DNA of 64,000 nt from Acidimicrobiales bacterium (GCA_965216685.1 OZ244195.1:209610-273609), one strand, 5' to 3'. Shown: positions 22,878 through 39,262, numbered from the stretch's first letter. Notes: a model not told the origin generated them from the letters alone. Translations and numbers: made by a program.

Positions 22878-22938
22878 AACGGTCAGGCTACCGCCGATGG
22901 ATCGGCTACCGTGGCACCGACATGCCTTCACACGTTTT

Positions 22939-23090: not shown

Positions 23091-24509
23091 TTACCAGCTG
23101 AAGGGACGATCGATGCCGGCCAGCTTGACCCCGGTGAAAGCCGAGGCCTCCAACGACAGCGCCCGCAGATCCTCCATCTCCAGATTGTGGACCGACGACT
23201 TGCCGCAGGCCTTGGCCAGCAGGGTGATCTCCATGGTCATGGCCGTCAGATAGCGGGCCACCCGCTCGGCCCCGGCGGCCACGTCCATCCGCTTCTCCAG
23301 CTCCGGATCCTGCGTGGTGATTCCCACCGGGCAGAGTCCGGTGTGGCAGTGGTGGCACTGCCCGGGGCTGGTTCCGAGAGCGGCGTAGTCGTCGAGATAG
23401 CGGGGACTGTTGCAGCCCAGCGACACCAGACCGGCGGTGCCGATCATCACACAGTCGGCCCCCAGAGCCAGGGCCTTGGCCGCATCGACCCCACTGCGGA
23501 TACCACCGGCGGCCACCAGCTTGACCTCATCGGCCATACCGGCGTCCTCCAGCGCTTCCCGGGCGGCCCGGATGGCCGACAGCGTTGGTATGCCGGTGTG
23601 ATCGAGGAGCAGTTCGGGCGATGCCCCCGTACCACCCTCGGCTCCGTCGACCACGATCACGTCAGCCCCGGCCTTGGCGGCGATGGCAACGTCGAATCGG
23701 GGCCGGGTGGCTCCCATCTTCACGAAGATCGGAACCTGGTAGCCGGTGGCTTCCCGCAGCTCCTCGATCTTGACCTGCATGTCGTCGGCCCCCAGGAAGT
23801 CGGGGTGGCGAACGGTGCTGCGCTGATCGACCCCCAGCGGCAGCGAACGCATCCCGGCCACCCGCTCCGAAACCTTCATGCCCAGCAACAGGCCGCCGGT
23901 GCCGGGCTTGGCTCCCTGGCCCACAACCAGCTCGATGGCGTCGACCTGACGGAGGTGGCTGAGGTCGAGCATGTAGCGGGACGGCGTCATCTGGTAGACC
24001 AGCAGGTCGGAGGCCTCCCGCTCGTCTTCCAGCATGCCGCCCTCGCCGGTGCAGGTCATCGAGCCCACCTTGGACGCCCCGTAGCCCAGGGCGGCCTTGG
24101 CCGAGGCCGAAAGCGCACCGAACGACATCGAGGCGATGTAGATCGGGATCTTCAGCTCCAGTGGCCGTTCCACCAGCCCGGGACGATCGCCCAGCACGGT
24201 GGTTGTGTCGCAGCTCTCCCGGTAGCCCTCCAAAGGCAGGCGGGTCATCGACGCCGGCACGAACGTCAGGTCGTCGAAGGTGGGGAAGCGGGAGTTGAAG
24301 GTGGTGAATCCCCGGATCTGGTAGCGACCCAGCCGGGACAGGGCGTGGACCTCGGAAATGGACTCCGGTGTCCAACGGATCGATTTGCCCCGGTCATAGG
24401 ACGACGGGACACCAGCCGGTCGGCCGTCCACCGCCCCGTCGCTGTAGGCCACCTCCTCCTCGGAGGGCATTGTGAACGGATACTCGTAACGCCCTAGATC
24501 ATCAGCCAT
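23091..24509 (-). CDS. FMN-binding glutamate-synthase-domain protein (GltB domain 2 / MgsC-like)
   Basis: MSFGALSASAKAALGYGA, GEGG, QGAKPGTGGLL, VVDGAEGGTGASP and a CHHCHTGLCPVGITTQ Cys cluster. The ATG at 24509 overlaps the upstream stop by 16 nt. Confidence 0.8.
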   Translation of the reverse strand: MADDLGRYEYPFTMPSEEEVAYSDGAVDGRPAGVPSSYDRGKSIRWTPESISEVHALSRLGRYQIRGFTTFNSRFPTFDDLTFVPASMTRLPLEGYRESCDTTTVLGDRPGLVERPLELKIPIYIASMSFGALSASAKAALGYGASKVGSMTCTGEGGMLEDEREASDLLVYQMTPSRYMLDLSHLRQVDAIELVVGQGAKPGTGGLLLGMKVSERVAGMRSLPLGVDQRSTVRHPDFLGADDMQVKIEELREATGYQVPIFVKMGATRPRFDVAIAAKAGADVIVVDGAEGGTGASPELLLDHTGIPTLSAIRAAREALEDAGMADEVKLVAAGGIRSGVDAAKALALGADCVMIGTAGLVSLGCNSPRYLDDYAALGTSPGQCHHCHTGLCPVGITTQDPELEKRMDVAAGAERVARYLTAMTMEITLLAKACGKSSVHNLEMEDLRALSLEASAFTGVKLAGIDRPFSW

Positions 24510-25192
24510 GCGCTTGCGTCCCTGCTCTCGAAGTGCCACAGCTTCTGGCCGGACACGATCTTCTTCCAGTCGCGGTCGCCAGGCCCGACCTCCAGCCCGG
24601 CCAGCAACTCATCGACCGAGGCCACTTCGGCCGCCTCCGGCTCGACCACCTTGGTGTCGACCCCCAGGCTCTTGATCGAGCCGGCCACCCAGACCTCCCC
24701 GCCCCACAGCGAGTCGCCGGTGGCCTCGCCGGCGTCGCCCAGGGCGATGATCCGCCCGTCGTGGGCCATGAATCCGGAGAGAAAACCGAGGTCGCCCTCG
24801 ATGACGATGTCGCCCCCTTTCATGGCCACACCGCAGCGGGGCCCGGCGTCGCCCTTGACGTGGACCAGGCCGCCCCGCATGGAGGCCCCAACGCTCATCC
24901 CGGAATAGCCGGCCACCGTGACCCGACCGGAGGCCATGGCTTCACCGGTCCCCCAGCCTGCGTTGCGGGTGACGGCGATCTCGGCCCCGTCGTTCAAGCC
25001 ACCGCAGTAGTAGCCGACCGAACCCTCGAATCGGACGTTGGCCCCCTCGGGCAGTGCCACCCCCAGGTTGTGACGGGATCGGGTGTCGGTGACCACGATG
25101 GTCCGCCCGGCGGCGGCCAAGGCCCGGATCTCGGCGTTGATCTCCCGGATCGGACGCTCGCCGACCTCCACAGTGGTCTCGGTCACGGTCAT
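24494..25192 (-). CDS. GXGXG-motif protein (glutamate synthase alpha-subunit C-terminal domain / MgsB-like)
   Basis: This is the last 232 codons of the 566-aa track ORF. It carries repeated G-x-G-x-G beta-helix motifs (GSVGYYCGGLNDGAEI, GWGTGEAMASGRVTV, GMSVGASMRGGLVHVKGDAG). ATG 25192 overlaps the upstream TGA (ATGA). Confidence 0.75.
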   Translation of the reverse strand: MTVTETTVEVGERPIREINAEIRALAAAGRTIVVTDTRSRHNLGVALPEGANVRFEGSVGYYCGGLNDGAEIAVTRNAGWGTGEAMASGRVTVAGYSGMSVGASMRGGLVHVKGDAGPRCGVAMKGGDIVIEGDLGFLSGFMAHDGRIIALGDAGEATGDSLWGGEVWVAGSIKSLGVDTKVVEPEAAEVASVDELLAGLEVGPGDRDWKKIVSGQKLWHFESRDASAWLMI

Positions 25193-26157
25193 CGGGCCGA
25201 CCCCGCCCCGGCCGATCCGGCGCCGGCCATCGAGCGAACCGACCAGACCTTGGTCAGGCTGGGCCCGTCGTAGTTGGCCATCTCGACGTCGTCGAGGTAG
25301 ATCTTGCGGACCGCCTGCTCCTCGGTGGCCACCGCCAGGGTGCCGCTCTCCTCCTCCACCGCCACCAGGGGTTTGATGGCGAAGGGATCCTTGGCGAAGG
25401 CCATCGAGTCGATGGTGGCCAGGATGTAGGTGAAGCAGCCGTCGAGTTTGATCACCGAGTCCTCCAGCGATTCCTCGATCTTGTGGCCCTTGGCCATCTG
25501 GTCCGACAGCCAGATGGCGATCAGCTCGGAATCGTTGTCGGTCTTGAAGTCGTAGCCGGCCCTGATCAGCCGGCCTTTGAGCAGCTGATAGTTGGTGAGC
25601 TGTCCGTTGTGGACGATGGCGATGTCGGGATACGGCCGGGCCCAGAACGGATGGGAGGCGGTGGGCGAGACGAACGACTCGGTGGCCATACGGGCATTGG
25701 TCAGACCGTGGGACCCCACGAAGTCCCTGACCCCGTGTTTGTCGGCCACCGTGTACCCGTCTCCCAGGTCCTTGATGATCTCCAACGATCGACCGACCGA
25801 TTGGATCTCGAAGCCATCGATGTGATCGGCATCGGCCAGCCACTGTTCGAAGGTGGAGGTGGGGTCGGTTATCTCCAGGCGGACTGAAACATGGTCGGTG
25901 GTGTCGTCGTCCCAGGTCGGCTGGCCGATGAAGTCGGAGCCGTGGCTCCGTGCTATGGCCAGGAAGGTTTCGAGGTGGTCGGACAACGACGCTCTGTCGG
26001 CCACCACCCGCACGACGTAGGAGTCGGTGCGGGGTTCGCCGTACATGCCGAAGCCGGTGGAGTCGGCCCCCCGGTGCCGTTGGGCCTGAATCAACTCGAC
26101 CAGGTCGGCCCCGATAGACCCGTGGGGGCAGAGTATCCGGCCTGCTATGCCGCACAT
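25189..26157 (-). CDS. class II (Ntn) glutamine amidotransferase-domain protein (GltB domain 1 / MgsA-like)
   Basis: ATG 26157 gives the MCGIAG N-terminus (nucleophile Cys2) and lies 6 nt after an AAGGAG site. The track start at 26163 is a TTG two codons upstream. Confidence 0.75.
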   Translation of the reverse strand: MCGIAGRILCPHGSIGADLVELIQAQRHRGADSTGFGMYGEPRTDSYVVRVVADRASLSDHLETFLAIARSHGSDFIGQPTWDDDTTDHVSVRLEITDPTSTFEQWLADADHIDGFEIQSVGRSLEIIKDLGDGYTVADKHGVRDFVGSHGLTNARMATESFVSPTASHPFWARPYPDIAIVHNGQLTNYQLLKGRLIRAGYDFKTDNDSELIAIWLSDQMAKGHKIEESLEDSVIKLDGCFTYILATIDSMAFAKDPFAIKPLVAVEEESGTLAVATEEQAVRKIYLDDVEMANYDGPSLTKVWSVRSMAGAGSAGAGSAR

Positions 26158-26213
26158 CGGCAACTCCTTCCGCTCGGCGGATCCTCGGGATCATCGAGGA
26201 TCCAGACGAGTAC

Positions 26214-26270: not shown

Positions 26271-26891
26271 TCAGCCCAACCCCTCGCACCGGTCGAGCAG
26301 ATGCTCGAGCAGATCGACGTGATCCCGCACCTCGCCCTCCTTGAAGGGCACGGTGTAGGGCGGTAGTGGGGGGAAGTAGACGGCGGTGATGGTTCCCGCC
26401 AGCGGAACCAGTTCGATGTGTACACCGCCCGGATCATGCACCACCGACATCGACTTCAGTTCGGACCGACCGGCCAGCTGCCGGGTTTCCTCATCGGCCA
26501 AGGCCTCGGCCACGTCCCGGGCGGAATCCAGGGCCTTGGTGGCGAAGGCGCGGCGGTCGAAGCGGTAGTTGTAGCGGGCCGCCCGCTCCCCCGGCTCGCC
26601 CTTGCGGGCGATCCACTGGGTGTCGATCAGCGCCCCGAACAGCCGGAAGTTTCCCTTGAATCCCACTTCGATGGTCGCACCGTCGGGCCGCACGGTCCGT
26701 GCCGACCGGTAGTCGACCTCGTCAAAAACCACGTGGTCGGCACCGTAACGGCGAACCAGCTCGCCGTGGGGAAGCTCGATGAGGGAGCGGCGCCGGGCCC
26801 GATAGAGCGTCCGGACACGACCACCGAGGCCGAGAAAGGTGGACCCGGTGTCAAAACCGGATCCACCCTCGGTTCGAGTCCTGCCGGTCAT
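26271..26891 (-). CDS. DUF3156-like hypothetical protein
   Basis: This is the last 206 codons of the 339-aa track ORF. ATG 26891 overlaps the permease TGA (ATGA). The family assignment is from memory only. Confidence 0.45.
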   Translation of the reverse strand: MTGRTRTEGGSGFDTGSTFLGLGGRVRTLYRARRRSLIELPHGELVRRYGADHVVFDEVDYRSARTVRPDGATIEVGFKGNFRLFGALIDTQWIARKGEPGERAARYNYRFDRRAFATKALDSARDVAEALADEETRQLAGRSELKSMSVVHDPGGVHIELVPLAGTITAVYFPPLPPYTVPFKEGEVRDHVDLLEHLLDRCEGLG

Positions 26892-28312
26892 ACAGTCTGA
26901 TGAAGTTCCTCTTCGAGATGATCGGCCTGGCCCGACGAGCCCCGCATGGCATAGGAGATGACGGCCACGACGGCCGAACCCAGGATCATCCACAGAGCCC
27001 GCGGCCCGTAGAAATCGTGGCCGCCTCCGGTGAAGGTCTGATACCACACATACACGGTGAGCAGAAAGCCGATCACCGGCACCACCAGTGGCAACTTGAA
27101 AGGCCGGTTGACGTCTGGGTTGACGTAGCGGCTGCCCGCCACCAGCACGTGGTAGGTGATGTAGAGCAGCATCCAGACGTAGGCGGCGGTGAAGATCAGG
27201 TCGCCGACCCCGGCCCCTCCGTCGGCCACGATCCCCCAGTAGATGGTGACGAAGGTGTAGAGCACGGCGGTGAACAGGATGGCCACCCACGGCGTCCGGT
27301 AGCGGGCGTGCACACTGCCGAACGGCTTCGACAACGGACCGAGGAAATGGCCGTTGCGGGACATGCCGTAGAGGATGCGGGGCATCGAGGCGTAGACCAC
27401 GGTCAACGAGGCGAAGGAGGCCACGGTGGCGGCCAGCGCCATCAGGAAGCGGCCGCTACCGCCGAACATGGCCTCACCGACCTCGAGCTGGGGGGCGTCC
27501 TCGGAGACGATACCGGCCCACTCGGAGTTGATGCCACTGACACCCAGTCCCATGAACATCGAGGTGGCCAGAATGGCTATCAACCCCCAGACGATACCCC
27601 GGGGGATGTTGCGGGCCGGATCCCTGGTCTCCTCGGCCAGGGGGGCCACGAACTCGATGCCGACGAAACTCCAGAAGGCCCAGGCCCCGGCGATGGCCAT
27701 CAGGCCGCTCAAGCCGCTGAACTCGGCCGGTGTCGACGGTATGTTGCCCCACGACCAGCCACCGAGGTCGCTGAACCCAAGGAATCCGGCCAGCCCGAAG
27801 AACCAGCGGATGGCCAGCATGACGATGATCAGGCCCAGCTCCAGCTTGGCCAGCACCTCGATGCCGAACAGATTGGGAATCACGGCGAACACCGTCAGGA
27901 TCAACACCCACATGGTGACGCTTCCGCCGTCGAACAACCCGACCATGCCCGAGGCTCCGGCCAAGGTCTCACCGGCGCCGGCGAACATGAACATCACATA
28001 GAACAGCAGACCGAGGAAGATGCCGACCACGGTCTTGGCCGCATGCCCCCCGGGGGTGGCGGCGGCGCCGTAGTCGTACAGTGCTCCGGCCTTGGGATAG
28101 GTGGTCGACAGCTCGGCCGCCGACAGACCCAGCAGCAGGTTCACCACGAACATGGCCAACAAGCCCACGGCAAAGCCCCGGCCGGCGGTGAACCATCCCT
28201 GGAAGTCCGATACCAGCGTGGAGGCCGCCACCACCAAGCCGACGCCGGCGGCGAATATGTCCTTCGTGCCGAGAGCCTTTTTCAGGCCCTCCCCCTCAAC
28301 GACAGCAGTCAT
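26888..28312 (-). CDS. APC-family amino acid/amine permease
   Basis: About 12 hydrophobic segments and 474 aa, with an AAGGAG site 7 nt upstream of the ATG. Confidence 0.8.
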   Translation of the reverse strand: MTAVVEGEGLKKALGTKDIFAAGVGLVVAASTLVSDFQGWFTAGRGFAVGLLAMFVVNLLLGLSAAELSTTYPKAGALYDYGAAATPGGHAAKTVVGIFLGLLFYVMFMFAGAGETLAGASGMVGLFDGGSVTMWVLILTVFAVIPNLFGIEVLAKLELGLIIVMLAIRWFFGLAGFLGFSDLGGWSWGNIPSTPAEFSGLSGLMAIAGAWAFWSFVGIEFVAPLAEETRDPARNIPRGIVWGLIAILATSMFMGLGVSGINSEWAGIVSEDAPQLEVGEAMFGGSGRFLMALAATVASFASLTVVYASMPRILYGMSRNGHFLGPLSKPFGSVHARYRTPWVAILFTAVLYTFVTIYWGIVADGGAGVGDLIFTAAYVWMLLYITYHVLVAGSRYVNPDVNRPFKLPLVVPVIGFLLTVYVWYQTFTGGGHDFYGPRALWMILGSAVVAVISYAMRGSSGQADHLEEELHQTV

Positions 28313-28429: not shown

Positions 28430-29047
28430 TCAGACGTCGAACGCCGACCAGCAGATCTCGTTGCGTAGGCGTTGATCGTCGAGAACAAGTGAGCGAATCG
28501 CATCGGGAAGCTGTTCACGCTGCCAGCGACACTCGGCCCGCCCGGCGGCCACCTGGTCGTCAGTCAGGGTTCCGGCCGGTACACCGGCCGGGGCTCCGGC
28601 CACGGACTCGGCCACGGCATCGGCCCATACCGCCTTGATGGCGTAGGCCGCGGCGCCGAGCTCATGGGCGGCAACATGGGCCACAGCCGCGGCGTGGCCG
28701 GCGGCGTAGGCGGCGTGGCGGGACGCTCCGCTCAGGGGTTGGGCTGCTCGCATGGCCCGGGTTCCCGCCGAACGGCACTCCATCATCTTCATCTGGCCGC
28801 CGGCCCAGGACCGGATGGCCGCGATCGCCTCCCGAGGCCTCCGGTCAGCCGGTTGCTCGGACTCGAAGAAGTGAAGCACGTGGGCCGCACAATCCGCCGC
28901 CCACTCAGCCAGCAGTCGATGATTGGCGTCGCTGAGGCTACCGCCCCGCCGGATCGTGACGAAACGAGGGTCTCGCTTCTCCGGGAGGATCACGGCCTCG
29001 TACCGATGGTCAGGCTCGTCACCCCAGCTCGGCGGCCACGACGGCAT
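28430..29047 (-). CDS. conserved helical hypothetical protein (resembles the putative-immunity / Imm-5-like family)
   Basis: The pattern LLAEWAADCAAHVLHFFE...DRRPREAIAAIRSWAGG...HAAAVAHVAAHELGAAAYAIKA is recalled from a widespread uncharacterised family. Confidence 0.35.
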   Translation of the reverse strand: MPSWPPSWGDEPDHRYEAVILPEKRDPRFVTIRRGGSLSDANHRLLAEWAADCAAHVLHFFESEQPADRRPREAIAAIRSWAGGQMKMMECRSAGTRAMRAAQPLSGASRHAAYAAGHAAAVAHVAAHELGAAAYAIKAVWADAVAESVAGAPAGVPAGTLTDDQVAAGRAECRWQREQLPDAIRSLVLDDQRLRNEICWSAFDV

Positions 29048-29417
29048 CGACCTCGATTTCCACCATCATGCCCGGCGTGGTCAGGCCCGCCTCGAAGCCG
29101 GTCATCACCGGCTCGATACCGGCAAAGACCTCGCCGTGGGCCCGCACCGCGTCGCCCGCCCCGGCCATGTCGGAGAAGATCAGCCTGGTCCGGACCACAT
29201 CGCCCAGCTCTGCCCCCACGTCGTTGAGAGCCTGCTCGATCCGCTTCGGGGCATAGCGCGTTTGGGCGTAGGCGTCGCCCGGAGCGTGTAGCCGCCCGCT
29301 GGGTTCGATGGCCGTGGTTCCGGCCACGAACACGAACGGCCCCACCCGCTTGGCCCGGCAATACGAGCCGGCCTTCTCGAACCGGCCACCTCCATAGGCC
29401 TTCCGGATCTCAACCAC
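29019..29417 (-). CDS. RidA/YjgF-family reactive-intermediate (enamine/imine) deaminase
   Basis: 132 aa, with FVFVAGT...G......Q......N........G....DVVRTRLIF and a C-terminal MVEIEVDAV. Confidence 0.75.
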   Translation of the reverse strand: MVEIRKAYGGGRFEKAGSYCRAKRVGPFVFVAGTTAIEPSGRLHAPGDAYAQTRYAPKRIEQALNDVGAELGDVVRTRLIFSDMAGAGDAVRAHGEVFAGIEPVMTGFEAGLTTPGMMVEIEVDAVVAAELG

Positions 29418-29476: not shown

Positions 29477-29509
29477 ATCAACGACGGTACGCATTCACCG
29501 AAAGTCACC

Positions 29510-30178
29510 ATGATGTTTCAGAGCCTGAAACGCTCGCCCGTCCGGCTGGCCGACCTGGTCTACGAACAGATCTTCCGAGCCATCGTCAACGGCGACCTTG
29601 CTCCGGGCGAGCGCCTGGTGCAGGAGACCATCGGTGAGCAGATGCAAGTATCCCGGACTCCGGTCCGCGATGCCCTGCTCCGGCTGGAGTCGGAGGGCAT
29701 TCTGGAGTCGTCGGGCCGGGGCGGCTACCTGGTTCGATCGTTCGATCGGCAGGAAGCCATCGACATCTACGGCCTGCGGGCCGCCGTCGAGGGTTACGCC
29801 GCCGGGGTGGCAGCCGACCGGGGCGACCAGGCCGACCTGGAGCTGATCGAGAAGGCCATCGCCGAGGCCGACGGCAACAACATCTCGCTCGACGAGGGAT
29901 TCGAGATCAATCGTCGCATTCACCGGGGTGTGGTGCTGGCCGCCCGCAACGCCATGCTGCTCGACGCCTTCGACACCGTGTGGGGTCGCAGCCAGTCGTT
30001 CCGGATGTTCGCCCGCCTTCATTCCCCCGAGCTGCGATACCTCAACGCCGAGCCCAGCCACGACCAGGTGCTGGCCGCCATCCGCACCGGCGATGCCGAT
30101 CATGCCCGGCGAACCATGGAACAGCACATCATGGTCGGCATGGCCCAACAACTCGAGGCCCTCCCCGACGACATCTGA
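29510..30178 (+). CDS. GntR-family transcriptional regulator (FadR/FCD subfamily)
   Basis: An N-terminal winged HTH (LADLVYEQIFRAIVNGDLAPGERLVQETIGEQMQVSRTPVRDALLRLESEGIL) and an all-helical C-terminal domain. Confidence 0.85.
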   Translation: MMFQSLKRSPVRLADLVYEQIFRAIVNGDLAPGERLVQETIGEQMQVSRTPVRDALLRLESEGILESSGRGGYLVRSFDRQEAIDIYGLRAAVEGYAAGVAADRGDQADLELIEKAIAEADGNNISLDEGFEINRRIHRGVVLAARNAMLLDAFDTVWGRSQSFRMFARLHSPELRYLNAEPSHDQVLAAIRTGDADHARRTMEQHIMVGMAQQLEALPDDI

Positions 30179-30187
30179 GCCGGCGTC

Positions 30188-31390
30188 TCATTGGTGCCAA
30201 CCATCGAGACGTCGACGCACGGCGGCGGCCGCTGCCTCCAGGGCCTGGCGCTCCCCCTCGACCAGTGGCAGTTCCACCACCTCCAACACGCCGCCCCGCC
30301 CCAACAGGGCGGGCACGCCGACCACGACGTCACGAATACCGTAGGCCCCATCCAGCACCACCGAAACCGGGATATGACCCGGCCGCGCCCCCCGCAGGGC
30401 GTTGAGCACCTCCACGGTGGCGTAGGCCGGAGCAATGGTGGCCGAACCGGTCCGCCGCAGCGCCACCACGTCTCCCCCGCCGGAAACGGCCTGGTCGACA
30501 CAACGCTGGATCTGCTCCTCGGTCAACATCGCCGACAGGGGCCGGCCCTGAATCGTCGACTGCGAAACCACGGGCACCATCTCGGCCCCGTGGCTTCCCA
30601 GGGTCAGGGCCTCGACGTCGGCCACATCCACCTCGGCGGCGGCGGCCAAGGCCCGCCGGAAACGGGCGGAATCAAGGGTGCCGGCCATCCCGATCACCTT
30701 CTCCCGGGCAAAGCCGCTCTCGGTGTACATCGTCATGGTCATCTCATCGAGGGGATTGGTGATGACGATCACCACCGCCTCGGGAGCATGGGCCACCACG
30801 GCCTCGGCCACCGACCGGACCACCCGGCCGTTGAGCTCCACCAGATCGGACCGGGACATACCCGGCGAGCGGGGCCGACCGGCACTCACCACCACGACGT
30901 CGGCCCCGGCCACCAACGACAGATCGGTACCGCCTGACACCTCGGTCGTCGACCGGGTCACCCCCGAAGCGTGATTCAGGTCGAGGGCCACCGAGGCGGC
31001 CCAGCCGGGCACGATGTCGATGAGTACGATCTCGGCCGACAGCGAGTCGGCGGCGGCCAGCAGAGCGGTGTTGGCCCCCACTCCCCCGGCGCCGACGAAG
31101 GCCACCTTGTCGAACACGATGGGGTTGAGCCCGACCGGAGCGGCCGGTGACATCCAGCCGGGATTGCGTCGGTAGAGGGCACGGCGCATGGCCGTGGCCC
31201 CGCCGACCTGGGGAACGGCCGGCTGTTCGGCCGGCCCCCGAACGAAGCTGATACCCAGCCGCTCGGCGCTGTCGCGGGCTTGACCGGTGATCAGGTCGCC
31301 GTCGCTAAACGAGATTCTCGTCTCCCCCCGCCGGCGGGCGGCCTGAACGTCTTCGTCGCCGATGACCCGGCCCCGGCCGCCGTCGCTCAC
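30188..31390 (-). CDS. LDH-like malate dehydrogenase with a ~95-aa N-terminal extension
   Basis: The core KVAFVGAGGVGANTA, GRPRSPGMSRSDL (Arg-type, malate specificity), ITNPLDEMT and GSHGAEMVP begins about residue 95. The GTG start overlaps the BMC-T stop (GTGA). Confidence 0.75.
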   Translation of the reverse strand: MSDGGRGRVIGDEDVQAARRRGETRISFSDGDLITGQARDSAERLGISFVRGPAEQPAVPQVGGATAMRRALYRRNPGWMSPAAPVGLNPIVFDKVAFVGAGGVGANTALLAAADSLSAEIVLIDIVPGWAASVALDLNHASGVTRSTTEVSGGTDLSLVAGADVVVVSAGRPRSPGMSRSDLVELNGRVVRSVAEAVVAHAPEAVVIVITNPLDEMTMTMYTESGFAREKVIGMAGTLDSARFRRALAAAAEVDVADVEALTLGSHGAEMVPVVSQSTIQGRPLSAMLTEEQIQRCVDQAVSGGGDVVALRRTGSATIAPAYATVEVLNALRGARPGHIPVSVVLDGAYGIRDVVVGVPALLGRGGVLEVVELPLVEGERQALEAAAAAVRRRLDGWHQ

Positions 31391-32031
31391 TCCTGTCGAC
31401 CCTCGATCGATTCGATCGTGGTGACGGCGGCCTCCATGGCCGTCTCCACCGCCGATTCGGTGCCGGAGAAGAAGGCCCGACCGAAGCGGCCCACGGCCCG
31501 CACCTCGACCAGGTCGATGTCGGCCGATTTCTCGGCTTCATTGACGGCGGCCCCCACGTAGGCCGCCGGACTGCATTCCACGATGCCCAGGGTCTGTCCC
31601 GGCACCAGGAGGGAACCCGACCGCCACTTGTTCAACAACTGAGCCTGGTAGGGCTCAACCGAGGTGATGACCTGAGTCGACTCCAACCGCGGTTTCACCC
31701 GATCATTGATCGACAGTCCCAGCATGTCGAGCACGGCGTCCCGGGCGGCCGAGATCTCGGCGTTGACCGGCGACCGGAGGATGAAGAAGCCGAACTCCCG
31801 CTCGACGATCTGGGTGGTGGCCTCGATGGTGGCCGCCTTGAGCGCGGTGTCGATGACCCGGAACACGGTGTTGCCGGGAGCGAACTCGCCCATCAGGATG
31901 GTGTCGCCGGCCAGTGGGATCGAACCCTGGACGGTGGCCCCGTTGTAGGCGGCGAACTTGGGTTGCAGCCGGTTGATCTGCAGCAGGGCCCGCATGGTCA
32001 ACGGGCTGGTCACCCCAGCGTTCCGGCTCAC
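31387..32031 (-). CDS. BMC-T shell protein (tandem BMC domains)
   Basis: Two BMC-like halves: GDTILMGEFAPGNTVFRVIDTALKAATIE...FILRSP and LGIVECSPAAYVGAAVNEAEKSADIDLVEVRAVGRFGRAFFSGTESAVETAMEAA. GTG 32031 overlaps the AldDH TGA. An ATG at 31995 is an alternative start. Confidence 0.7.
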   Translation of the reverse strand: MSRNAGVTSPLTMRALLQINRLQPKFAAYNGATVQGSIPLAGDTILMGEFAPGNTVFRVIDTALKAATIEATTQIVEREFGFFILRSPVNAEISAARDAVLDMLGLSINDRVKPRLESTQVITSVEPYQAQLLNKWRSGSLLVPGQTLGIVECSPAAYVGAAVNEAEKSADIDLVEVRAVGRFGRAFFSGTESAVETAMEAAVTTIESIEGRQE

Positions 32032-33416
32032 GTTTGATCCTCCCCGTAGACGTCGAAGATGGTGCGCCACGGCCGCGACTCGTAGACCACCCGTTTGATG
32101 TTGATCAGATGGAGAGCGTTGACGTTGTCGGACACGATCGAACCCGACCCGGTTCCGGTGCCCAGCATGAAGCTCGGTTCGAGGTCGGAGGAGTAGCCCA
32201 TGGCGGCCATGAGCGCCGGCTGATTGACCACCACCCGGCCGCTGGGGAGCCGGGCAAAGCGGGACACCACCGAGGCGTCGTGGCTGTGGATCACCGCGGT
32301 GTGACCGACCCCGCCCCAATCCAGGATCCGGCCGGCCAGATCCAGCCCGTGGTCGACGGTGGCCGCCTCGTACCAGGCCAGCACCGGGTTGAGTTTCTCC
32401 AGGCTCAACGGCCGGTGGCGGCCGACCTCGGTCTCGGCGGCCAGCAGCACCGTGGTGCCGGGCGGGATGTCGAACCCGGCCCGTTGGGCCAGGGTTTGGG
32501 CCGACTGGCCTACGCCGCCCGGTCGGATGTGCTGGGACTCGTCGAAGATCACATCGGCCAGTCGCTCGGCTTCAGCCGGACTGCAGAAATAGCCTCCCCC
32601 CTGCCTGATCTCGGCCCGGAGGGCGGCGGCGATGGACCGGTCGACGATGACGGCCTGCTCCCCGGCACAGGCCGTGCCGTAGTCGAAGGCTTTGGAGATG
32701 AGGATCTGCTCGGCCACGTCGGCCACCTCGTCGACCATCGACTGGTGGACGTAGCACGGCACGTTGCCCGGACCGACGGCCAGTGTCGGTTTACCCGACT
32801 GGTGGGCGGCCCGGACCATGGCCGATCCGCCGGTGGCCATGATGATGGCCGTCTTCCGGTGCCGCATCAGAGCATCGGTGCCCTCCAGCGTGACCTCGTC
32901 GAGGCACTGGATCAGGCCGTCGGGTGCGCCGTGGTTGCGGGCGGCCTCGGCCATGACCCGGGCCGTCTCCCGACCGCAGTTCACTCCCCGGGGATGAGGA
33001 GCGCAGACAATGGCATTGCCCGACTTGATGGCCGACAGAACCTTGAAGATGATCGTCGAGGTCGGGTTGGTCACCGGGATGATGGCGGCCACCACCCCCA
33101 TCGGTTCGCCCACCGCCATTGTCCTGGTGTTGGCGTCGTGCCACAGCACCCCGAGGGTGGTGATGTTGCGCAGCCAGTCGGCCACCCCCCGGGCGTTGAA
33201 CAGGTTCTTGATCCGCTTGTCGGGGGCGTTGCCGTAGCCGGTTTCCTCGGCCGCCATGACGCCCAGCCGGGCGGCCTCGGTTTCGATGGCCTGGGCCATG
33301 GCCTCGACGATGCGGTCGATATGCTCCGGTGGCGTGCCCCGGAACTTCTCGAAGGCGACGTGGGCCGACTCCACCGCCTGGCGTGCTTGGGCGATGCTTC
33401 GCAAATCGGCATCCAT
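32028..33416 (-). CDS. CoA-acylating aldehyde dehydrogenase (PduP/EutE-like)
   Basis: This is the last 462 codons of the 914-aa track ORF, starting MDADLRSIAQARQAVESAHVAFEKF. It has IIPVTNPTST, a catalytic Cys context (DYGTACAGEQ), VGPGNVP, and lacks the long oligomerisation tail of non-acylating ALDHs. Confidence 0.8.
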   Translation of the reverse strand: MDADLRSIAQARQAVESAHVAFEKFRGTPPEHIDRIVEAMAQAIETEAARLGVMAAEETGYGNAPDKRIKNLFNARGVADWLRNITTLGVLWHDANTRTMAVGEPMGVVAAIIPVTNPTSTIIFKVLSAIKSGNAIVCAPHPRGVNCGRETARVMAEAARNHGAPDGLIQCLDEVTLEGTDALMRHRKTAIIMATGGSAMVRAAHQSGKPTLAVGPGNVPCYVHQSMVDEVADVAEQILISKAFDYGTACAGEQAVIVDRSIAAALRAEIRQGGGYFCSPAEAERLADVIFDESQHIRPGGVGQSAQTLAQRAGFDIPPGTTVLLAAETEVGRHRPLSLEKLNPVLAWYEAATVDHGLDLAGRILDWGGVGHTAVIHSHDASVVSRFARLPSGRVVVNQPALMAAMGYSSDLEPSFMLGTGTGSGSIVSDNVNALHLINIKRVVYESRPWRTIFDVYGEDQT

Positions 33417-34591
33417 CACGACCACCCGATTCCCAGGCTGTCGATGGTTCTCCGGACCGTGCCCATGGAGTCGGCCCGGATACCGATGCGATCGAGACGG
33501 CGACCGGCCGAGTCCAGGTCGCCGCCGAGGACGGCCTTGGCCATGTCGATCATCGAGCGGGTGGCGGGAACGTCGATACCGGCCGGCTCGGCCGCCGACG
33601 CCAGCGGCACCAGCGATCCCAACACGGCACAACGCAGCCGGGACCGGGCCTCGACGGCAGTAGGAATCGTTCGGCCTCCCTCCTCGCTCCCGTCGCCCAC
33701 CACGGCGGCGATGGTGGCCGCCGGATCGGGGAGATCCCGGACACCCCACCGTTCGGCCACCCGGCGGCGCTCGTCGACCAACCGCTCGACCAGCTCGACC
33801 TGACCGGGTTGGAACCGGGACGCCATGCTGGCCCCGGCCAGGGCCACCGCCCCCGGAGGCAGGTCGGGAGACTCGTCGAACACCGGACCCCCGACCAGCA
33901 GGGCCACGGCCTCCACCGCCCCCGAGTGGTCGGCGAAGCTGGAGTGGATGACGGTCGGAGCCGAGACGATGGAGGGAAAGAACCGTTGCAGGCCGGTCAC
34001 CACGGCGTCGAGTGAACTGGGCAGGGTGGCCACCATCGGGTCGACACCGGGATGGAAGTGCAGTACGTGATCGCGGCGCTCCAGCCCGAAGGGCAGGGCC
34101 GACATCTCGGCCACCGTCACCCGGTTGGAGGCACCTCCCACCCGCAACCACCAGGTGGTCTCCAGTGCTCCGAAGGTCCGCCCGGGGGCCACCAGGAGAA
34201 TCTGATCCTCGGCCAGCCGGTCGGCCAGGACCAGGCCGTAGGTCCGTTGCTTCAGGACGGTGCCGGTGACGACGATCAGATCGGCCCCGGCGACGGCCTC
34301 CTCCAGGATCGAGGTCACGGCGATGTGGGGTCCGTCGCCTTGGGTCTGGTAGGTGCCGATTGGACCGGCACCGCGCACGGTGACACCCCGGGCCAGCCGG
34401 GCCAGGTCGTCCTGGTAGACCGAGAACAACGAGACCCCACCGGCCCCGTTGGCCAGGAACCAGGCGGCCAGGGCTTGGCCCTCGATCCCGCCGCCCAGGA
34501 CGGCGACCCGGTCGATGACCGGTTGGGGTTCGGGGGGACGCTGGTCGTCGGTGAACGACTCCAGCACGGCTTGAAAGTCGGCCGAGGTCAT
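33416..34591 (-). CDS. opine (octopine/nopaline)-dehydrogenase-family NAD(P) oxidoreductase with a short N-terminal helix plus Pro-rich linker
   Basis: Rossmann motif VAVLGGGIEGQALAAW, then LIVVTGT..., then LVAPGRTFGALET...VTVAEMSALPFGLERR...VATLPS. This parallels the PG.TGGALE...ET.S.LF..R...A.LP pattern of opine dehydrogenases. Confidence 0.6.
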   Translation of the reverse strand: MTSADFQAVLESFTDDQRPPEPQPVIDRVAVLGGGIEGQALAAWFLANGAGGVSLFSVYQDDLARLARGVTVRGAGPIGTYQTQGDGPHIAVTSILEEAVAGADLIVVTGTVLKQRTYGLVLADRLAEDQILLVAPGRTFGALETTWWLRVGGASNRVTVAEMSALPFGLERRDHVLHFHPGVDPMVATLPSSLDAVVTGLQRFFPSIVSAPTVIHSSFADHSGAVEAVALLVGGPVFDESPDLPPGAVALAGASMASRFQPGQVELVERLVDERRRVAERWGVRDLPDPAATIAAVVGDGSEEGGRTIPTAVEARSRLRCAVLGSLVPLASAAEPAGIDVPATRSMIDMAKAVLGGDLDSAGRRLDRIGIRADSMGTVRRTIDSLGIGWS

Positions 34592-34608
34592 CGACTGTCG
34601 GGCCGGGC

Positions 34609-34893
34609 TCAGTCAGCCTGAGGCAGGATCGACTCCACCTCGGCCGACGGGCGGGGGATGACGTGGACCGAGACGACGTCGCCCACCTTGTTGGCGGCCA
34701 CCGCCCCGGCGTCGGTGGCGGCCTTGACCGCGCCGACTTCACCTCGGACGAACACCGCCACCAGGCCGCCACCCACCTTCTCGCTGCCCACCAGCGTCAC
34801 GTTGGCCGCCTTGATCATGGCGTCGGCGGCTTCCACCGCTGCCACCACACCTCGGGTTTCGACCATTCCAAGCGCAACTTGCTCCATTGTCAC
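34609..34893 (-). CDS. BMC-H shell protein (PduA/CcmK-type hexamer)
   Basis: [57 protein letters not shown] is a canonical BMC domain. Confidence 0.9.
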
Positions 34894-35201
34894 TTTCTCC
34901 TCTTCGGTTTCTCCGAACTCCGGTAGACCGACGTTCCGGCGTGTACCACTTCATCGAGAATCATCACCACGGCGGCATCGACCGCCCGGCCCCGGCTGGC
35001 CGCCGGCTGCCGAGCCGCCGATCCGGTGGTCACCAGGACCCAGTCACCGACACCGGCCCCCAGATCGTCGACCGCCACCTCGCCCGGTTGCTGCACCTTG
35101 CCGGCGCCGTCGACCAGGTCGACGACCAGGAGCTTGCGGCCGGCCAGGCCTTCGGCCTTGATCGTGCCGGTCACGGTGCCGACGATGCGGCCGATCCTCA
35201 C
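34890..35201 (-). CDS. BMC-P vertex protein (EutN/CcmL-type pentamer)
   Basis: [27 protein letters not shown]....G......[23 protein letters not shown]....DAAVVMILD is a canonical EutN/CcmL pattern. Confidence 0.85.
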
Positions 35202-35204
35202 CGG

Positions 35205-36491
35205 TCAGAACCTCCGCAGGTAACGCGCCGTTTCCACCGGCGTCACCTGCTGGGCCATGAACTCGATCTCCCGCTCGGCCTGCCCGATCCAGATGCCGAG
35301 GAGATCTTCCCCCAGCAGATCGGCCACGAACTCCGATTCCCGAGCTGCGGCCACGGCGGCCTCGATGGTCACGGGAATGGGTTGGGCCTCGCCGTTCTCG
35401 TAGGCGTTGCCCAGGTCGGGATCGCCGGGATCGAGATCCTCCTCGATTCCCCGTAGACCGGCGGCGATCTGGGAGGCCAGTAGGTAATAAGGGTTGGTAT
35501 CAGCCGAGCCGTCGCGCTGTTCGATGCGGACCGCGCTGTCGTGGCCCTCGATGACCCGGAGGCCGACGGTGCGGTTGTCGTATCCCCAGGCGTTGTTGGT
35601 GGGGCAGAAGGTGTAGGGCTGACGGCGACGGTAGGCGTTGGGGGTGGACGCCGACAGCAACGCCGTTTCCGCCATGTGTCGTCTCATGCCGGCCAGATAC
35701 TGGCGGCCGATGGCCGACAGCTTGCCGCCATCGGCGAAGATGTTCTTGCCGTCGCGCCAGGCCGAGTGATGGACGTGGAATCCCGAGCCGGACTCCTCGA
35801 AGAACGGCTTCGACATGAAGGTGGCGACGTAGCCGTTGGCCACCGCCAGTTGTTTGATCATGCCCCGGAAGGCCACCACGTTGTCGGCGGTGGCCATGGC
35901 TTCGCCGTAACGGATGTTGACCTCGACCTGACCGGCGGCGTACTCCGGGTTCGACTGTTCGATGGGGATGCCGGCGGCGGTGAGGTCGTTGCGGATCGGA
36001 CCGAGGATCGATTCCAGCTCCATGGCCCGTTCCAGGCCGTAGACCTCGATGCCCGAGTCGCGGGGCCGCAGGGTCTCGGGGTCGAGCAGATAGAACTCGA
36101 GTTCGGCTCCGATGGAGATCTCCAGCCCCATGTCGGCCGCTTTGTCGGCCACCTTGAGCATCACGTTGCGGGGGTCGATGGGGCAGGGTGCGCCGTCCTC
36201 GGTCTGAACCTTTCCGGGACAGAAGGCGGCGCCGGGATCCCAGGCCATGGGCCGCACCTCGTCCGAGTCGGGGAGCACGAAGATGTCGGGGTAGCCGGTC
36301 TCGAAGTTGGTGTAGGGCGTGTCCCAGATGTCGCATGTCATGTCGAGAGCGAAGATGGCGTTGGACATGGCCATGCCGTGCTCGGCCACAGTGGGCCAGT
36401 GACTGGCCGGGATGCGTTTGCCCCGGAGGATGCCGTTGGTGTCCCCCACGCCCAGGACAACGGTGTGAATTCCCTCGGGCAGCTGGCTCAT
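35205..36491 (-). CDS. glutamine-synthetase-family gamma-glutamyl-amine ligase (GmaS/PuuA/GlnA3-like)
   Basis: GS catalytic-domain motifs are present (GAELEFYLLD, NPEYAAGQVEVNIRY, KPFFEESGSGFHVHHS, NAYRRR). It is the first gene of the BMC operon. Confidence 0.75.
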   Translation of the reverse strand: MSQLPEGIHTVVLGVGDTNGILRGKRIPASHWPTVAEHGMAMSNAIFALDMTCDIWDTPYTNFETGYPDIFVLPDSDEVRPMAWDPGAAFCPGKVQTEDGAPCPIDPRNVMLKVADKAADMGLEISIGAELEFYLLDPETLRPRDSGIEVYGLERAMELESILGPIRNDLTAAGIPIEQSNPEYAAGQVEVNIRYGEAMATADNVVAFRGMIKQLAVANGYVATFMSKPFFEESGSGFHVHHSAWRDGKNIFADGGKLSAIGRQYLAGMRRHMAETALLSASTPNAYRRRQPYTFCPTNNAWGYDNRTVGLRVIEGHDSAVRIEQRDGSADTNPYYLLASQIAAGLRGIEEDLDPGDPDLGNAYENGEAQPIPVTIEAAVAAARESEFVADLLGEDLLGIWIGQAEREIEFMAQQVTPVETARYLRRF

Positions 36492-36611: not shown

Positions 36612-37754
36612 ATGCCTGAAGCCGACGTTGTCATCGCCGGAGCCGGCATCGTCGGACTGTGCACCGCCCGCGAGCTTCAGGCCGCCGGGGCCGACGTCAT
36701 GCTGGTCGACCCATGGGAGCCAGGCCACGCCCGCCAGGCGTCAGCCGGCATCCACCGGGTCATCCGCTCGACCCACGGCAGCGATGAGCTGTACACCCGT
36801 TGGGCCCGGGAATCACGGCTGCGGTGGCTGGAGATGCAGGCCACCACCGACACCCCCATCTACCACGAATGCGGGGCCGTGGTCCTCGCCGCCGAAGGCC
36901 ACGACGAATGGGAGATGGCAACCATCCCGACCTTCGACCGGCTCGGCATCCCCTACCTGCGCCTGTCACCCGATGAGCTGGTGGTTCGCTTCCCCACCTT
37001 CGACCCCCGGCAGGTGGCCTTTGCCCTCTACGAACCGGAGGCCGGCTTTCTCTGGTCCCGCAACATCGTGCGCAAACTCTACGCCGACTTCCTGACCGCC
37101 GGCGGGCGGTTCCGGCGAACCCGGTTGACCGTGTCCGACGACGAGCGGCCGCTGCTGGAGGGCCGACCGGTGGAGGCCGAACACACCGTCATCGCCAACG
37201 GGGCGTGGATGGGATATCTACTGCGCTCCTCCCTGGGTCGCCTGCTGCGGGTGGTCCGCCAAGACATCATCTACACCAGCGTTCCCGAAAACGACGACCG
37301 CTGGCACGCCGACCGCCATCCGGTCTGGATCGACCACGGCTACGGGGCCTACGGCATCCCCGACGCCGGAGGCTACGGCTTCAAGGCCGCCATTGCCTGG
37401 CATGAGTCCGACATCAGGCTCGACGACGACGACCGGGTGGTCGATCGGGCCTCCATGGCCCGGTCCCAGCAGTATTTGGGTTACCGCTTCCCCGACATCG
37501 CCGGGCAGGCCATCGTCGACCAGAAGGTATGCCAGATCGTCATGACCCCCGACACCCACTTCCTGCTCGACACCCACCCTGAGCATTCCGATGTGATTCT
37601 GGCCGGTGGCGGATCGGGGTCGATCTTCAAACACGGCCCGGTGGTCGGCGCCTACGTGGCCGGCATGGTTCAGGGCCGCTGGCGGCCCGACGACCGTTTC
37701 ACCCTGGCCAACCGGCGAAGCCTGTCGATGGCCGAATCCCCCTCCGGCCGCTAG
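36612..37754 (+). CDS. FAD-dependent amine/sarcosine-oxidase-like oxidoreductase (DAO family)
   Basis: ATG 36612 gives MPEADVVIAGAGIVGLCTARELQAAGADVMLVD (a dinucleotide fold at the N-terminus). The track start at 36531 (TTG) would put the palindrome inside the coding sequence. Confidence 0.75.
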   Translation: MPEADVVIAGAGIVGLCTARELQAAGADVMLVDPWEPGHARQASAGIHRVIRSTHGSDELYTRWARESRLRWLEMQATTDTPIYHECGAVVLAAEGHDEWEMATIPTFDRLGIPYLRLSPDELVVRFPTFDPRQVAFALYEPEAGFLWSRNIVRKLYADFLTAGGRFRRTRLTVSDDERPLLEGRPVEAEHTVIANGAWMGYLLRSSLGRLLRVVRQDIIYTSVPENDDRWHADRHPVWIDHGYGAYGIPDAGGYGFKAAIAWHESDIRLDDDDRVVDRASMARSQQYLGYRFPDIAGQAIVDQKVCQIVMTPDTHFLLDTHPEHSDVILAGGGSGSIFKHGPVVGAYVAGMVQGRWRPDDRFTLANRRSLSMAESPSGR

Positions 37755-37802: not shown

Positions 37803-38480
37803 TCAGTCGGGTTCGGTTGTCGGTCCGAACCTCAGCCCGAGGATGCAGCCCAGGTCGGCCAGGGCCCGACCGCGATGGCTGATGGCCCCCTTCTCCGCCC
37901 GCGACATCTCGGCAAACGTGCGGCCGTCGCCCTCATCGGGCACAAAGATCGGGTCATAGCCGAACCCCCCTGAGCCTCGCGGCTCGGTGGTGATGGTGCC
38001 GTCGACCCGACCCCAGGCCAACACCCACACTCCCCGGCGAATCGGCTCGGGCAGCGTCGGCCAATCGGGAATGGAACGACCGAACCCCAACGCGATGATG
38101 GTCTCGAAGTAGGCCCGACGGTCGCTCGCCTCCTCCATCTCGGTCAACAGCTTGGCCTGGTTGGCCTCGCCGTCGGCCTCGGGACCGGCATATCGTGCGC
38201 TGTACACGCCGGGTCGCCAGTTGAGGGCGGGCACGAACAACCCCGTGTCGTCGGCCAGAGCCGCCTGGCCGGTATGGCTCCTGACCTCGTCCGCCTTCTT
38301 GTGGGCGTTGCCGGCCAGCGAATCCTGATCCTCGACGGTCTCGGCCAAGTCGGTCGGCCGGGGCTCGACGGCGAAGTGTTCACCGAGGAGGTCGACCAGT
38401 TCGGCCACCTTGCCCGGGTTCTCGGTGGCCAGGATCAGTCGGGGCCGCTCCCTCGCCGTTCCGACCAGGGTCCGGGTCAA
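37803..38480 (-). CDS. rdgB: RdgB/HAM1-family non-canonical purine NTP pyrophosphatase
   Basis: [47 protein letters not shown] and the ISHRGRAL motif. Confidence 0.85.
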
Positions 38481-39196: not shown

Positions 39197-39262
39197 TGCA
39201 GGGTCTCCCGTGATCGCTTGTCGCCCGAGCATAGGCCGCGTCGGACCCTAATCGCGGACCTC

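Follow-up and report, generated by a model that had tools for sequence, protein, structure and literature searches.

An oxidoreductase with a predicted opine-dehydrogenase fold, a putative encapsulation helix and an altered active site in a MIC2-type bacterial microcompartment operon of an Acidimicrobiales bacterium

What does an enzyme related to opine dehydrogenases do in an operon that encodes the shell of a bacterial microcompartment (BMC)? The question is raised by a 64,000-nucleotide stretch of DNA from an Acidimicrobiales bacterium (GCA_965216685.1 OZ244195.1:209610-273609), hereafter the window, in which an open reading frame (ORF) for a protein of 391 amino acids (aa) lies at 33416-34591 within a block of shell genes. 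A first-pass annotation, which gave no strand, had noticed this ORF and its motifs and had read the product as an opine dehydrogenase carrying an encapsulation peptide and serving as the candidate signature enzyme of the compartment; that interpretation is partly supported by the present analysis. The ORF is on the minus strand, with an ATG start and a TGA stop, and its translation begins with MTSADFQAVLESFTDDQRPPEPQPVIDRVAVLGGGIEG and contains the quoted motifs PGRTFGALE, VAEMSALPFGLERR and ATLPS. The answer that we favour, with slightly better than even credence, is that the protein is a cargo of the MIC2 type of microcompartment that combines an opine-dehydrogenase fold with an encapsulation helix and a rebuilt active site, and that it takes part in the breakdown of an amine by way of an aldehyde.

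The gene and its MIC2-type operon

The 391-aa gene is not a chance reading frame, because 100 homologue clusters match its product at E<=1e-24 and the AlphaFold2 model of the product has a mean pLDDT of 92.9. The start codon is backed by more than 100 homologues that open with M-[ST]-x-x-[DE]-F. The gene is the fourth of an operon on the minus strand, in which the following genes succeed one another at intergenic distances of 3, -4, 17, -1, -4 and -4 nt:

35205..36491, minus strand: glutamine-synthetase-like (GS-like) ligase, the operon's first gene (PF00120, E=3.9e-84)
34890..35201, minus strand: BMC-P (EutN/CcmL) shell vertex protein (PF03319, E=1.6e-24)
34609..34893, minus strand: BMC-H shell protein, directly upstream of the 391-aa gene (PF00936, E=4.3e-27)
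33416..34591, minus strand: oxidoreductase of 391 aa with predicted opine-dehydrogenase fold, NAD(P) type (ORF, matches to 1bg6, AlphaFold2, Foldseek)
32028..33416, minus strand: CoA-acylating aldehyde dehydrogenase (ALDH) of the EutE/PduP type (TIGR02518, 467.8 bits, residues 2-448)
31387..32031, minus strand: BMC-T, a tandem-domain shell protein like CcmP/CsoS1D (NF053796 CcmP model, E=1e-56)
30188..31390, minus strand: malate-dehydrogenase-like (MDH-like) enzyme with an N-terminal extension of ~95 aa (NF004863, 324 bits against a cut-off of 283)

The stop codon of the 391-aa gene and the start codon of the ALDH gene overlap by 1 base (TGATG). The ALDH has its catalytic Cys within the motif TACAGEQ and bears no terminal extension, and the BMC-T gene, whose start overlaps the ALDH stop, begins with GTG behind the ribosome-binding site GGAGGA. 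The MDH-like enzyme contains the motifs GRPRSPGMSR, LDSAR and GSHG, and the MDH-type Arg at the specificity position of the first of these suggests a dicarboxylic 2-oxo-acid substrate; its N-terminal ~95 residues (about 31106-31390) had no Pfam match. No further copy of a shell gene was found in the window, and among the ORFs searched from 23 to 38 kb, a set that omits some small ORFs, none matched the PduL/PTAC or alcohol-dehydrogenase families. Two longer frames were rejected as genes. A mechanical ORF of 914 aa at 32028-34772 on the minus strand, in the frame of the 391-aa gene, is an artefact of high GC content, and an ORF of 589 aa at 32034-33803 on the plus strand overlaps real genes in a manner typical of DNA with 65% GC.

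The operon recurs wherever close relatives of the 391-aa protein were followed into their genomes. A genome scan with an 8-sequence alignment as query found relatives encoded in at least 175 species-level genomes, and the loci of the best 80 of these 175 genomic relatives, together with four looked up earlier, make up the 84 loci counted here. Each of the 84 loci is a BMC operon; the relatives encoded there have 41-71% identity, apart from two with 32%. The ALDH gene is directly downstream in all 84, BMC-H is present in 83, BMC-P and the GS-like gene are upstream in 82, BMC-T is present in 78 and the MDH-like gene in 76, and every gap in this pattern coincides with a contig end. The carriers belong to the Alpha- and Gammaproteobacteria and the Acidimicrobiia and are mostly marine Rhodobacterales, Hyphomicrobiales, Arenicellales, Granulosicoccaceae, a metagenome-assembled genome of 'Poriferihabitaceae', and Acidimicrobiia, which hold the closest relatives (66-71% identity). 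To judge from the organism names, many carriers are associated with marine invertebrates, animals that make opines. Cultured carriers include Aliishimia ponticola MYP11, Hoeflea alexandrii, Hoeflea poritis, Microbaculum marinum, Phaeobacter marinintestinus and Nitratireductor sp. XY-223. In one MIC2-like locus, L003 on a JGI 3300041964 contig, the genes for GS, DAO and the Ldh-like enzyme are broken into pieces and BMC-T is not called, which points either to decay of the locus or to an assembly rich in frameshifts.

According to the catalogue of Sutter et al. (2021, Nat Commun 12:3809, Supplementary file 6; PMC8217296), the MIC2 type comprises 22 loci from Proteobacteria plus two Actinobacteria. 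In its entry the shell is minimal, H/P/T(dp), and the enzymes include an AldDh that lacks an encapsulation peptide, a pfam00120 GS, and a pfam02866 Ldh/Mdh with a BMC-specific N-terminal extension of ~70 aa, which is noted for MIC1 and MIC2 and named EutQ/cupin-like; MIC-type loci are described as being without the usual alcohol dehydrogenase (PMC8217296). The entry further lists a protein of the 6-phosphogluconate-dehydrogenase-like superfamily whose N-terminus is extended by a short segment, possibly an encapsulation peptide, ~10aa long and predicted to be helical (PMC8217296). The window locus matches the entry point for point in shell, enzyme set and incomplete core (no PTAC or alcohol dehydrogenase), and is a further member without structural difference, from taxa such as those already recorded for the type, which include a few Actinobacteria. 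The 391-aa gene is a conserved core part of the catalogued MIC2 microcompartment.

Neither the word 'octopine' nor PF02317 appears anywhere in the catalogue (PMC8217296), and its MIC2 description, within the part of the source that treats the type, does not mention the Mgs-like trio, the gene like monomeric sarcosine oxidase (MSOX), RidA or the altered active site, all of which are described below. A literature search pairing 'bacterial microcompartment' with 'opine dehydrogenase' found none, and a search for later work on MIC2 found none assigning a function. The first-pass annotation had held that no opine dehydrogenase was described as BMC cargo; this is right for the name, which the catalogue lacks, but the cargo protein with its possible ~10aa peptide was already in the MIC2 entry. 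Both the type of locus and its putative targeting peptide were known, and only the opine-dehydrogenase assignment is new. Among the homologues of the 391-aa protein is P0090 of 'Candidatus Rhodobacter oscarellae', which we take to be the same sponge symbiont as 'Rhodobacter lobularis'. A locus of 'Rhodobacter lobularis' is labelled MIC2 in the trees of the catalogue (PMC8217296).

Fold, N-terminal helix and active site

The protein was classified by profile and fold searches, and single-sequence library scans gave sub-threshold matches. In these scans Pfam Octopine_DH scored 20.4 bits against a curated cut-off of 30 and matched over the last 29 model positions only, and glycerol-3-phosphate dehydrogenase (G3PDH) and 3-hydroxyacyl-CoA dehydrogenase models from Pfam/NCBIfam, with E>0.03, were discarded as sub-threshold; some family members do have a precomputed PF02317 match. 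The single sequence matched N-(1-D-carboxylethyl)-L-norvaline dehydrogenase (CENDH, PDB 1bg6) over its full length with E=2e-11. A family profile built from a 42-sequence alignment matched the same structure at full length (profile positions 30-389) with E=6.7e-44 and scallop octopine dehydrogenase (OcDH) with E=1.6e-11, and its matches to 6-phosphogluconate dehydrogenase, imine reductases and G3PDH were marginal (>=6e-4) and confined to the Rossmann part.

The AlphaFold2 model (pTM 0.91) leads to the same family. The best Foldseek match is 1bg6 (E=1.6e-20, TM 0.74/0.83, identity only 22%), the top of the list reads 1bg6, 3c7d, 3iqd, 3c7a and 6c4l, and octopine, yersinopine and pseudopaline dehydrogenases precede the ketopantoate reductases. 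Membership among the G3PDH or ketopantoate reductases was rejected because their scores lie far under those of the opine dehydrogenases in both the profile and the Foldseek E-values; the first-pass annotation had named a grouping with these enzymes as what would speak against it, and the searches group the protein with the opine dehydrogenases instead. By profile and by predicted structure, the 391-aa protein belongs to the opine dehydrogenase fold family. Its model has the two domains of these enzymes, an N-terminal Rossmann domain and a C-terminal helical 'octopine DH' domain, and it shares full-length homology with CENDH (1bg6) and OcDH (3c7a/3c7d/3iqd), including the motifs GxGxxG/A, PGRTxGALE, ER 274-275, GLVPL and GR 363-364. 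The first of these is the dinucleotide-binding motif, in which G33 is found in 108/108 family members, G35 in 102/108 and a G or A at position 38 in 107/108. Compared with 1bg6, the 391-aa protein has about 22 additional N-terminal residues. The segments that matter for this addition are the following:

34550..34585, minus strand: residues 3-14 (SADFQAVLESFT), predicted helix and putative encapsulation peptide (DSSP, pLDDT about 85)
34511..34549, minus strand: residues 15-27, Pro-rich linker (coil in the model; gapped, unconserved alignment columns)
34478..34495, minus strand: residues 33-38, GGGIEG, the dinucleotide-binding GxGxxG/A motif (conservation in the family)

The first-pass annotation had taken the N-terminus for an added helical segment tied to BMC loci, and both the model and the relatives bear this out. 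AlphaFold2 predicts that residues 3-14 form a helix, that 15-27 are coil and that the first Rossmann strand covers 28-32. The hydrophobic residues of the helix, F6, V9, L10 and F13, are spaced at i, i+3/4 and i+7, and F6 is found in 100 of the 108 family members, an F or V at position 9 in 97 and A12 in 96; the linker, in contrast, differs between family members in both length and sequence. In a protein search that covered 1.84 billion representative proteins, the best ~50 matches have the N-terminal extension, and most of the lower ones, which are 355-375 aa long and mostly without it, start at profile position 29-31 with their residue 2-8. The extension occurs in every BMC-linked relative examined and is missing from most stand-alone relatives; its median length is 29 aa in BMC-linked relatives versus 5 aa in more distant relatives, 63/82 of which have 0-9 residues ahead of the Rossmann strand. 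All four BMC loci in which the protein N-terminus was read carry the peptide. No shell genes were found near two annotated stand-alone relatives, one on an Arthrobacter plasmid ('odh') and one on a Cytobacillus plasmid, which adjoin transporters and regulators; three other stand-alone relatives lie on metagenome contigs of 1.2-2.3 kb, too short for gene context. The 391-aa gene thus differs from stand-alone enzymes of the CENDH/OcDH type, which adjoin transporters, in that it adjoins shell genes.

The encapsulation peptides of PduP, PduD and EutE are likewise terminal, consist of a short predicted helix and a poorly conserved linker, and are missing from most non-BMC homologues. In comparison with them, the helix of the 391-aa protein is shorter (~10-12 residues) and modestly amphipathic, and in this locus the peptide is on the opine-dehydrogenase-like enzyme, whereas the ALDH is without one. 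The argument for an encapsulation peptide draws on where the segment lies, on its predicted helix and linker and on its distribution, not on amphipathicity statistics. Helix 3-14 most likely acts as an encapsulation peptide by which the enzyme is recruited to the shell.

The catalytic residues were compared in an alignment of 1bg6 with 34 relatives from outside MIC2, of which 33 lack the N-terminal extension, and conservation within the MIC2 family was counted over 108 members. We assume the CENDH numbering His202, Arg292 and Asp297, in combination with this alignment. The key codon is as follows:

33911..33913, minus strand: codon of Glu227, which aligns with the catalytic His of CENDH (His202) and of octopine dehydrogenase (His212; alignments)

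Nearly all of the non-MIC2 relatives keep the His of '..HP..LLN', and they keep the motif 'R[YF]xxED'; the stand-alone relatives that conserve both His and Asp number about 30. In the MIC2 family, position 227 is E in 100/108 members and D in 5/108; position 322, which corresponds to Asp297, is Ala in the window protein and A or G in 103/108 members; LLN has become LLGG; and the column of Arg292 (Arg324 in OcDH) holds no Arg, with a conserved Arg320 three residues further along the helix. Relative to CENDH and OcDH, therefore, His202 is replaced by Glu227 and Asp297 by Ala322, the Arg is shifted, and new invariant Arg and Lys residues appear. Asp221, Glu227, Arg73, Lys114, Arg116 (R116 in 107/108), Arg307 and Arg320 are nearly invariant across phyla. 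In octopine dehydrogenase, a His-Asp proton relay and an Arg that acts as NADH 'sensor' are catalytic and binding elements (PMC2924402). The statement of the first-pass annotation that the core follows the opine dehydrogenase pattern does not extend to these residues or to the Pfam score, and classical opine chemistry appears doubtful for the 391-aa protein. Because the replacement residues are nearly invariant and GxGxxG/A is intact, the active site seems to have been re-tuned and not to have decayed; it looks like a site that was rebuilt rather than lost.

A second lineage and the neighbouring genes

A second lineage of opine-dehydrogenase-type proteins is linked to BMC loci. P0146 (435 aa), its example, keeps the catalytic His and begins with a classic encapsulation peptide (VDAIVAAVMKEL) that is followed by a long low-complexity linker. 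The P0146 family, hereafter lineage 2, comprises 1,219 clusters or more, the majority of them from Actinomycetota, and the proteins considered here (P0146 and P0250-P0368) are 415-460 aa long, pass PF02317 and have low-complexity linkers of 30-70 aa. Their loci (L086/L087 and L093-L103) are ordered MgsABC-like genes, GS, BMC-P, BMC-H, opine dehydrogenase, ALDH, BMC-T and Ldh-like gene, so that the opine dehydrogenase occupies the slot between BMC-H and ALDH that the 391-aa gene has in MIC2. L093 and L101 are exceptions, in which the opine dehydrogenase comes after the Ldh-like gene. MgsABC-like genes are directly upstream of GS in every lineage 2 locus with sufficient flank, and PduS- and PduT-like genes follow in L086/L087.

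In a rough neighbour-joining tree, one clade holds the MIC2-type proteins together with intermediate sequences, two of which (P0097 and P0100) were confirmed to lie in BMC operons, and lineage 2 forms a separate clade (49/50 replicates); the two BMC-linked lineages were monophyletic in 21/50 replicates. Because lineage 2 fills the corresponding operon slot, an opine-dehydrogenase-type enzyme is, as far as operon comparison can tell, an integral and repeatedly retained part of these compartments.

On both sides of the operon in the window lie genes that bear on the metabolism of amines:

36612..37754, plus strand: FAD enzyme like monomeric sarcosine oxidase, divergent from the operon (PF01266, E=1e-41; MSOX 1el5, E=3.7e-32, full length)
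29510..30178, plus strand: regulator of the GntR/FCD family (PF00392, PF07729)
29019..29417, minus strand: RidA, imine/enamine deaminase family (PF01042, E=9e-19)
26888..28312, minus strand: amino-acid/amine permease of the APC family (PF13520)
25189..26163, minus strand: class-II amidotransferase, MgsA-like (PF13537, PF13522)
24494..25192, minus strand: GXGXG-domain protein, MgsB-like, start approximate (PF01493)
23091..24539, minus strand: protein with the FMN domain of glutamate synthase, MgsC-like (PF01645, E=1e-93)

The MSOX-like gene is present in 78/84 MIC2 loci, and counterparts of the MgsC-like gene, 76-94% identical, are near (<=8 kb) 39/84. A regulator of the GntR/FCD type also occurs in L001, L003 and L093, and RidA in L001 and L003. 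The permease matches an ethanolamine permease model weakly (83 bits, under the cut-off). The GS-like ligase matches the models of type III GS and of gamma-glutamylputrescine synthetase, both below cut-off, and matches the GmaS structure 7cql (PDB) with 1e-37; to judge from these similarities, it is likely a gamma-glutamyl-amine synthetase.

The conversion of an amine through a gamma-glutamyl-amide and an N-alkyl-glutamate to an aldehyde and glutamate is the logic of the N-methylglutamate pathway, and the route proposed below draws on established knowledge of this pathway and of Puu/Ipu-type pathways. The N-methylglutamate pathway (GmaS, MgsABC, MgdABCD) resembles this locus in that a GS-like ligase and a split glutamate-synthase-like trio are encoded together, and its logic would fit a compartment that handles an aldehyde. 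It differs in three respects. The GS-like protein scores well under the cut-off of the GmaS-type model (219.8 versus 469.6 bits); no MgdABCD-type dehydrogenase was found, and an opine-dehydrogenase-like enzyme and, in MIC2, an MSOX-like enzyme are present instead; and the N-methylglutamate pathway as known has no compartment association. In a literature search on microcompartments and this pathway, no title or abstract among the top 12 of 1,724 loose matches pairs the two, and one of the 12, PMC12180729, contains both words. By analogy, the gene context suggests secondary-amine chemistry that would release an aldehyde, and RidA fits the imine intermediates that such a route might have.

Housekeeping genes on both sides indicate that the BMC locus spans roughly 23.1-37.8 kb: ClpP (22272-22931, minus strand) flanks it on one side, and Ham1/RdgB, RNase PH and an Asp/Glu racemase (37803-40108, minus strand) on the other. 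Further out, a flavin amine-oxidoreductase-like protein, a DUF1365 protein and a methyltransferase like cyclopropane-fatty-acyl-phospholipid synthase (40267-43741, minus strand) look unrelated to it. Within these limits, an ORF with an Imm5-like 'immunity protein' domain (28430-29047, minus strand) lies between the MDH-like gene and the permease gene and was not seen in other loci. A minus-strand ORF at 29495-30151 was dropped in favour of the GntR/FCD gene.

Proposed role and rival readings

The pathway that the gene context makes most likely would run as follows. A small primary amine would be imported and gamma-glutamylated by the GS-like ligase, and the N-methylglutamate-synthase-like trio would convert the product to a secondary amine of the N-alkyl-glutamate type. 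The C-N bond of this compound would then be oxidised to give an aldehyde and glutamate, either by the NAD(P)-dependent 391-aa enzyme or, in MIC2 loci, by the sarcosine-oxidase-like flavoenzyme, or by both. The encapsulated acylating ALDH would turn the aldehyde into an acyl-CoA, and the MDH-like enzyme would re-oxidise the NADH. Because the ALDH is translationally coupled to the 391-aa protein and has no peptide, the latter may also bring the ALDH along. The proposal that the protein is the signature enzyme of the compartment is plausible, but as a candidate for the aldehyde-forming step in this locus type the flavoenzyme is just as good.

Several points weigh against this account. Encapsulation, cofactor and substrate of the 391-aa protein are all features that we infer, and nothing in the locus points to a particular amine. 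Only about one MIC2 locus in two has the Mgs-like genes at a distance of 8 kb or less. With the canonical His-Asp dyad replaced, opine-dehydrogenase chemistry of the classical kind becomes less likely. In addition, no MSOX-like gene was found in the fetched flanks of the lineage 2 loci (0/10, versus 78/84 in MIC2), a distribution that would fit a takeover of C-N oxidation by the flavoenzyme in MIC2. Finally, the amphipathicity of helix 3-14 appears to be only modest: its hydrophobic moment is 0.30 (p=0.21 against shuffles), and that of the best 11-mer is 0.46, at the 82nd percentile within the protein. The amphipathic character that the first-pass annotation saw in the N-terminus is weakened accordingly, the hydrophobic moment not being significant against shuffles. 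The N-terminal pLDDT of 73-85 could also mean that the helix is docked on the enzyme body and not free.

A wider and more specific form of the proposal is that MIC2 and lineage 2 are both amine-catabolic microcompartments on an N-alkyl-glutamate route, with an encapsulated, previously undescribed NAD(P)-dependent N-alkyl-amino-acid dehydrogenase, derived from opine dehydrogenases, that frees the aldehyde within the shell for the acylating ALDH, and with an MDH-like enzyme that recycles NAD+ by means of oxaloacetate and malate. We offer this only tentatively, as a possibility held at well below even credence.

The last two adverse points lead to the first rival, in which the N-terminal segment is a structural element specific to the family, such as an oligomerisation device or a docking lid, and not a targeting peptide. 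The pLDDT is indeed fairly high for a supposedly free helix and linker, the hydrophobic moment is modest, and the helix is shorter than classical encapsulation peptides. However, the segment is confined to BMC-linked lineages, its linker varies in length and sequence, and lineage 2 bears at the equivalent terminus an unmistakably classical peptide with a long low-complexity linker. We therefore regard a purely structural role as rather improbable and retain the encapsulation peptide as the most likely function of the helix.

A second rival reads the 391-aa protein as a non-catalytic adaptor, a pseudoenzyme that would retain fold and nucleotide binding but mainly anchor the ALDH, which has no peptide, and possibly further cargo at the shell while the flavoenzyme oxidises the C-N bond. 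The His-Asp dyad is lost, the protein is the only enzyme of the operon with an encapsulation-peptide-like tail, and the MSOX-like gene accompanies it in most MIC2 loci and accompanies the His-keeping opine dehydrogenase in none of the ten loci. With this complementary pattern (His kept without flavoenzyme, His lost with flavoenzyme), the flavoenzyme may have assumed the C-N oxidation in MIC2 and the 391-aa protein may have a modified or an adaptor role. However, the substituted positions and the new Arg and Lys residues are nearly invariant across phyla and GxGxxG/A is intact, and an adaptor devoid of catalysis is in our view unlikely.

A third possibility is that the protein recycles the cofactor, as an analogue of PduQ/EutG. 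Opine dehydrogenases in invertebrate muscle condense an amine and a carbonyl compound reductively, and a condensation of this kind could re-oxidise the NADH of the ALDH. The usual alcohol dehydrogenase is missing from MIC-type loci, the enzyme is coupled to the ALDH, and opine dehydrogenases are physiologically reductive (PMC2924402). Against this, the MDH-like enzyme with its BMC-specific extension is already a candidate for the same task, and the altered catalytic residues are a problem that this rival shares with the one that follows; we consider it quite unlikely. Least probable of all is a classical opine dehydrogenase that, as signature enzyme, splits an N-(carboxyalkyl) amino acid, an opine or a nopaline-like N-substituted glutamate, with NAD(P)+ into an amino acid and a 2-oxo acid for the MDH-like enzyme: the closest solved relatives (CENDH and octopine, yersinopine and pseudopaline dehydrogenases), the MDH-like partner's Arg, which is typical of enzymes specific for dicarboxylic 2-oxo acids, and the many carriers that live with opine-making marine invertebrates speak for it, but the protein has Glu for His, Ala or Gly for Asp and a displaced Arg where stand-alone relatives keep all three residues, the Pfam Octopine_DH score is under the gathering threshold, and a 2-oxo-acid product leaves the tightly coupled acylating ALDH unexplained.

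MIC2 is one of many catalogued microcompartment types without an assigned substrate or signature enzyme, and the proposed amine route now provides a testable pathway hypothesis for it, with N-alkyl-glutamates and small amines as candidate substrates and with cultured carriers in which tests can be made. If the proposal is true, secondary-amine oxidation would join the known compartmentalised chemistry, with NAD+ recycling by malate dehydrogenase. In its wider form, the opine-dehydrogenase-fold protein would be the first of a new class of signature enzymes for BMCs, and an orphan BMC type found widely among marine Alpha- and Gammaproteobacteria and in Acidimicrobiia would acquire a function.

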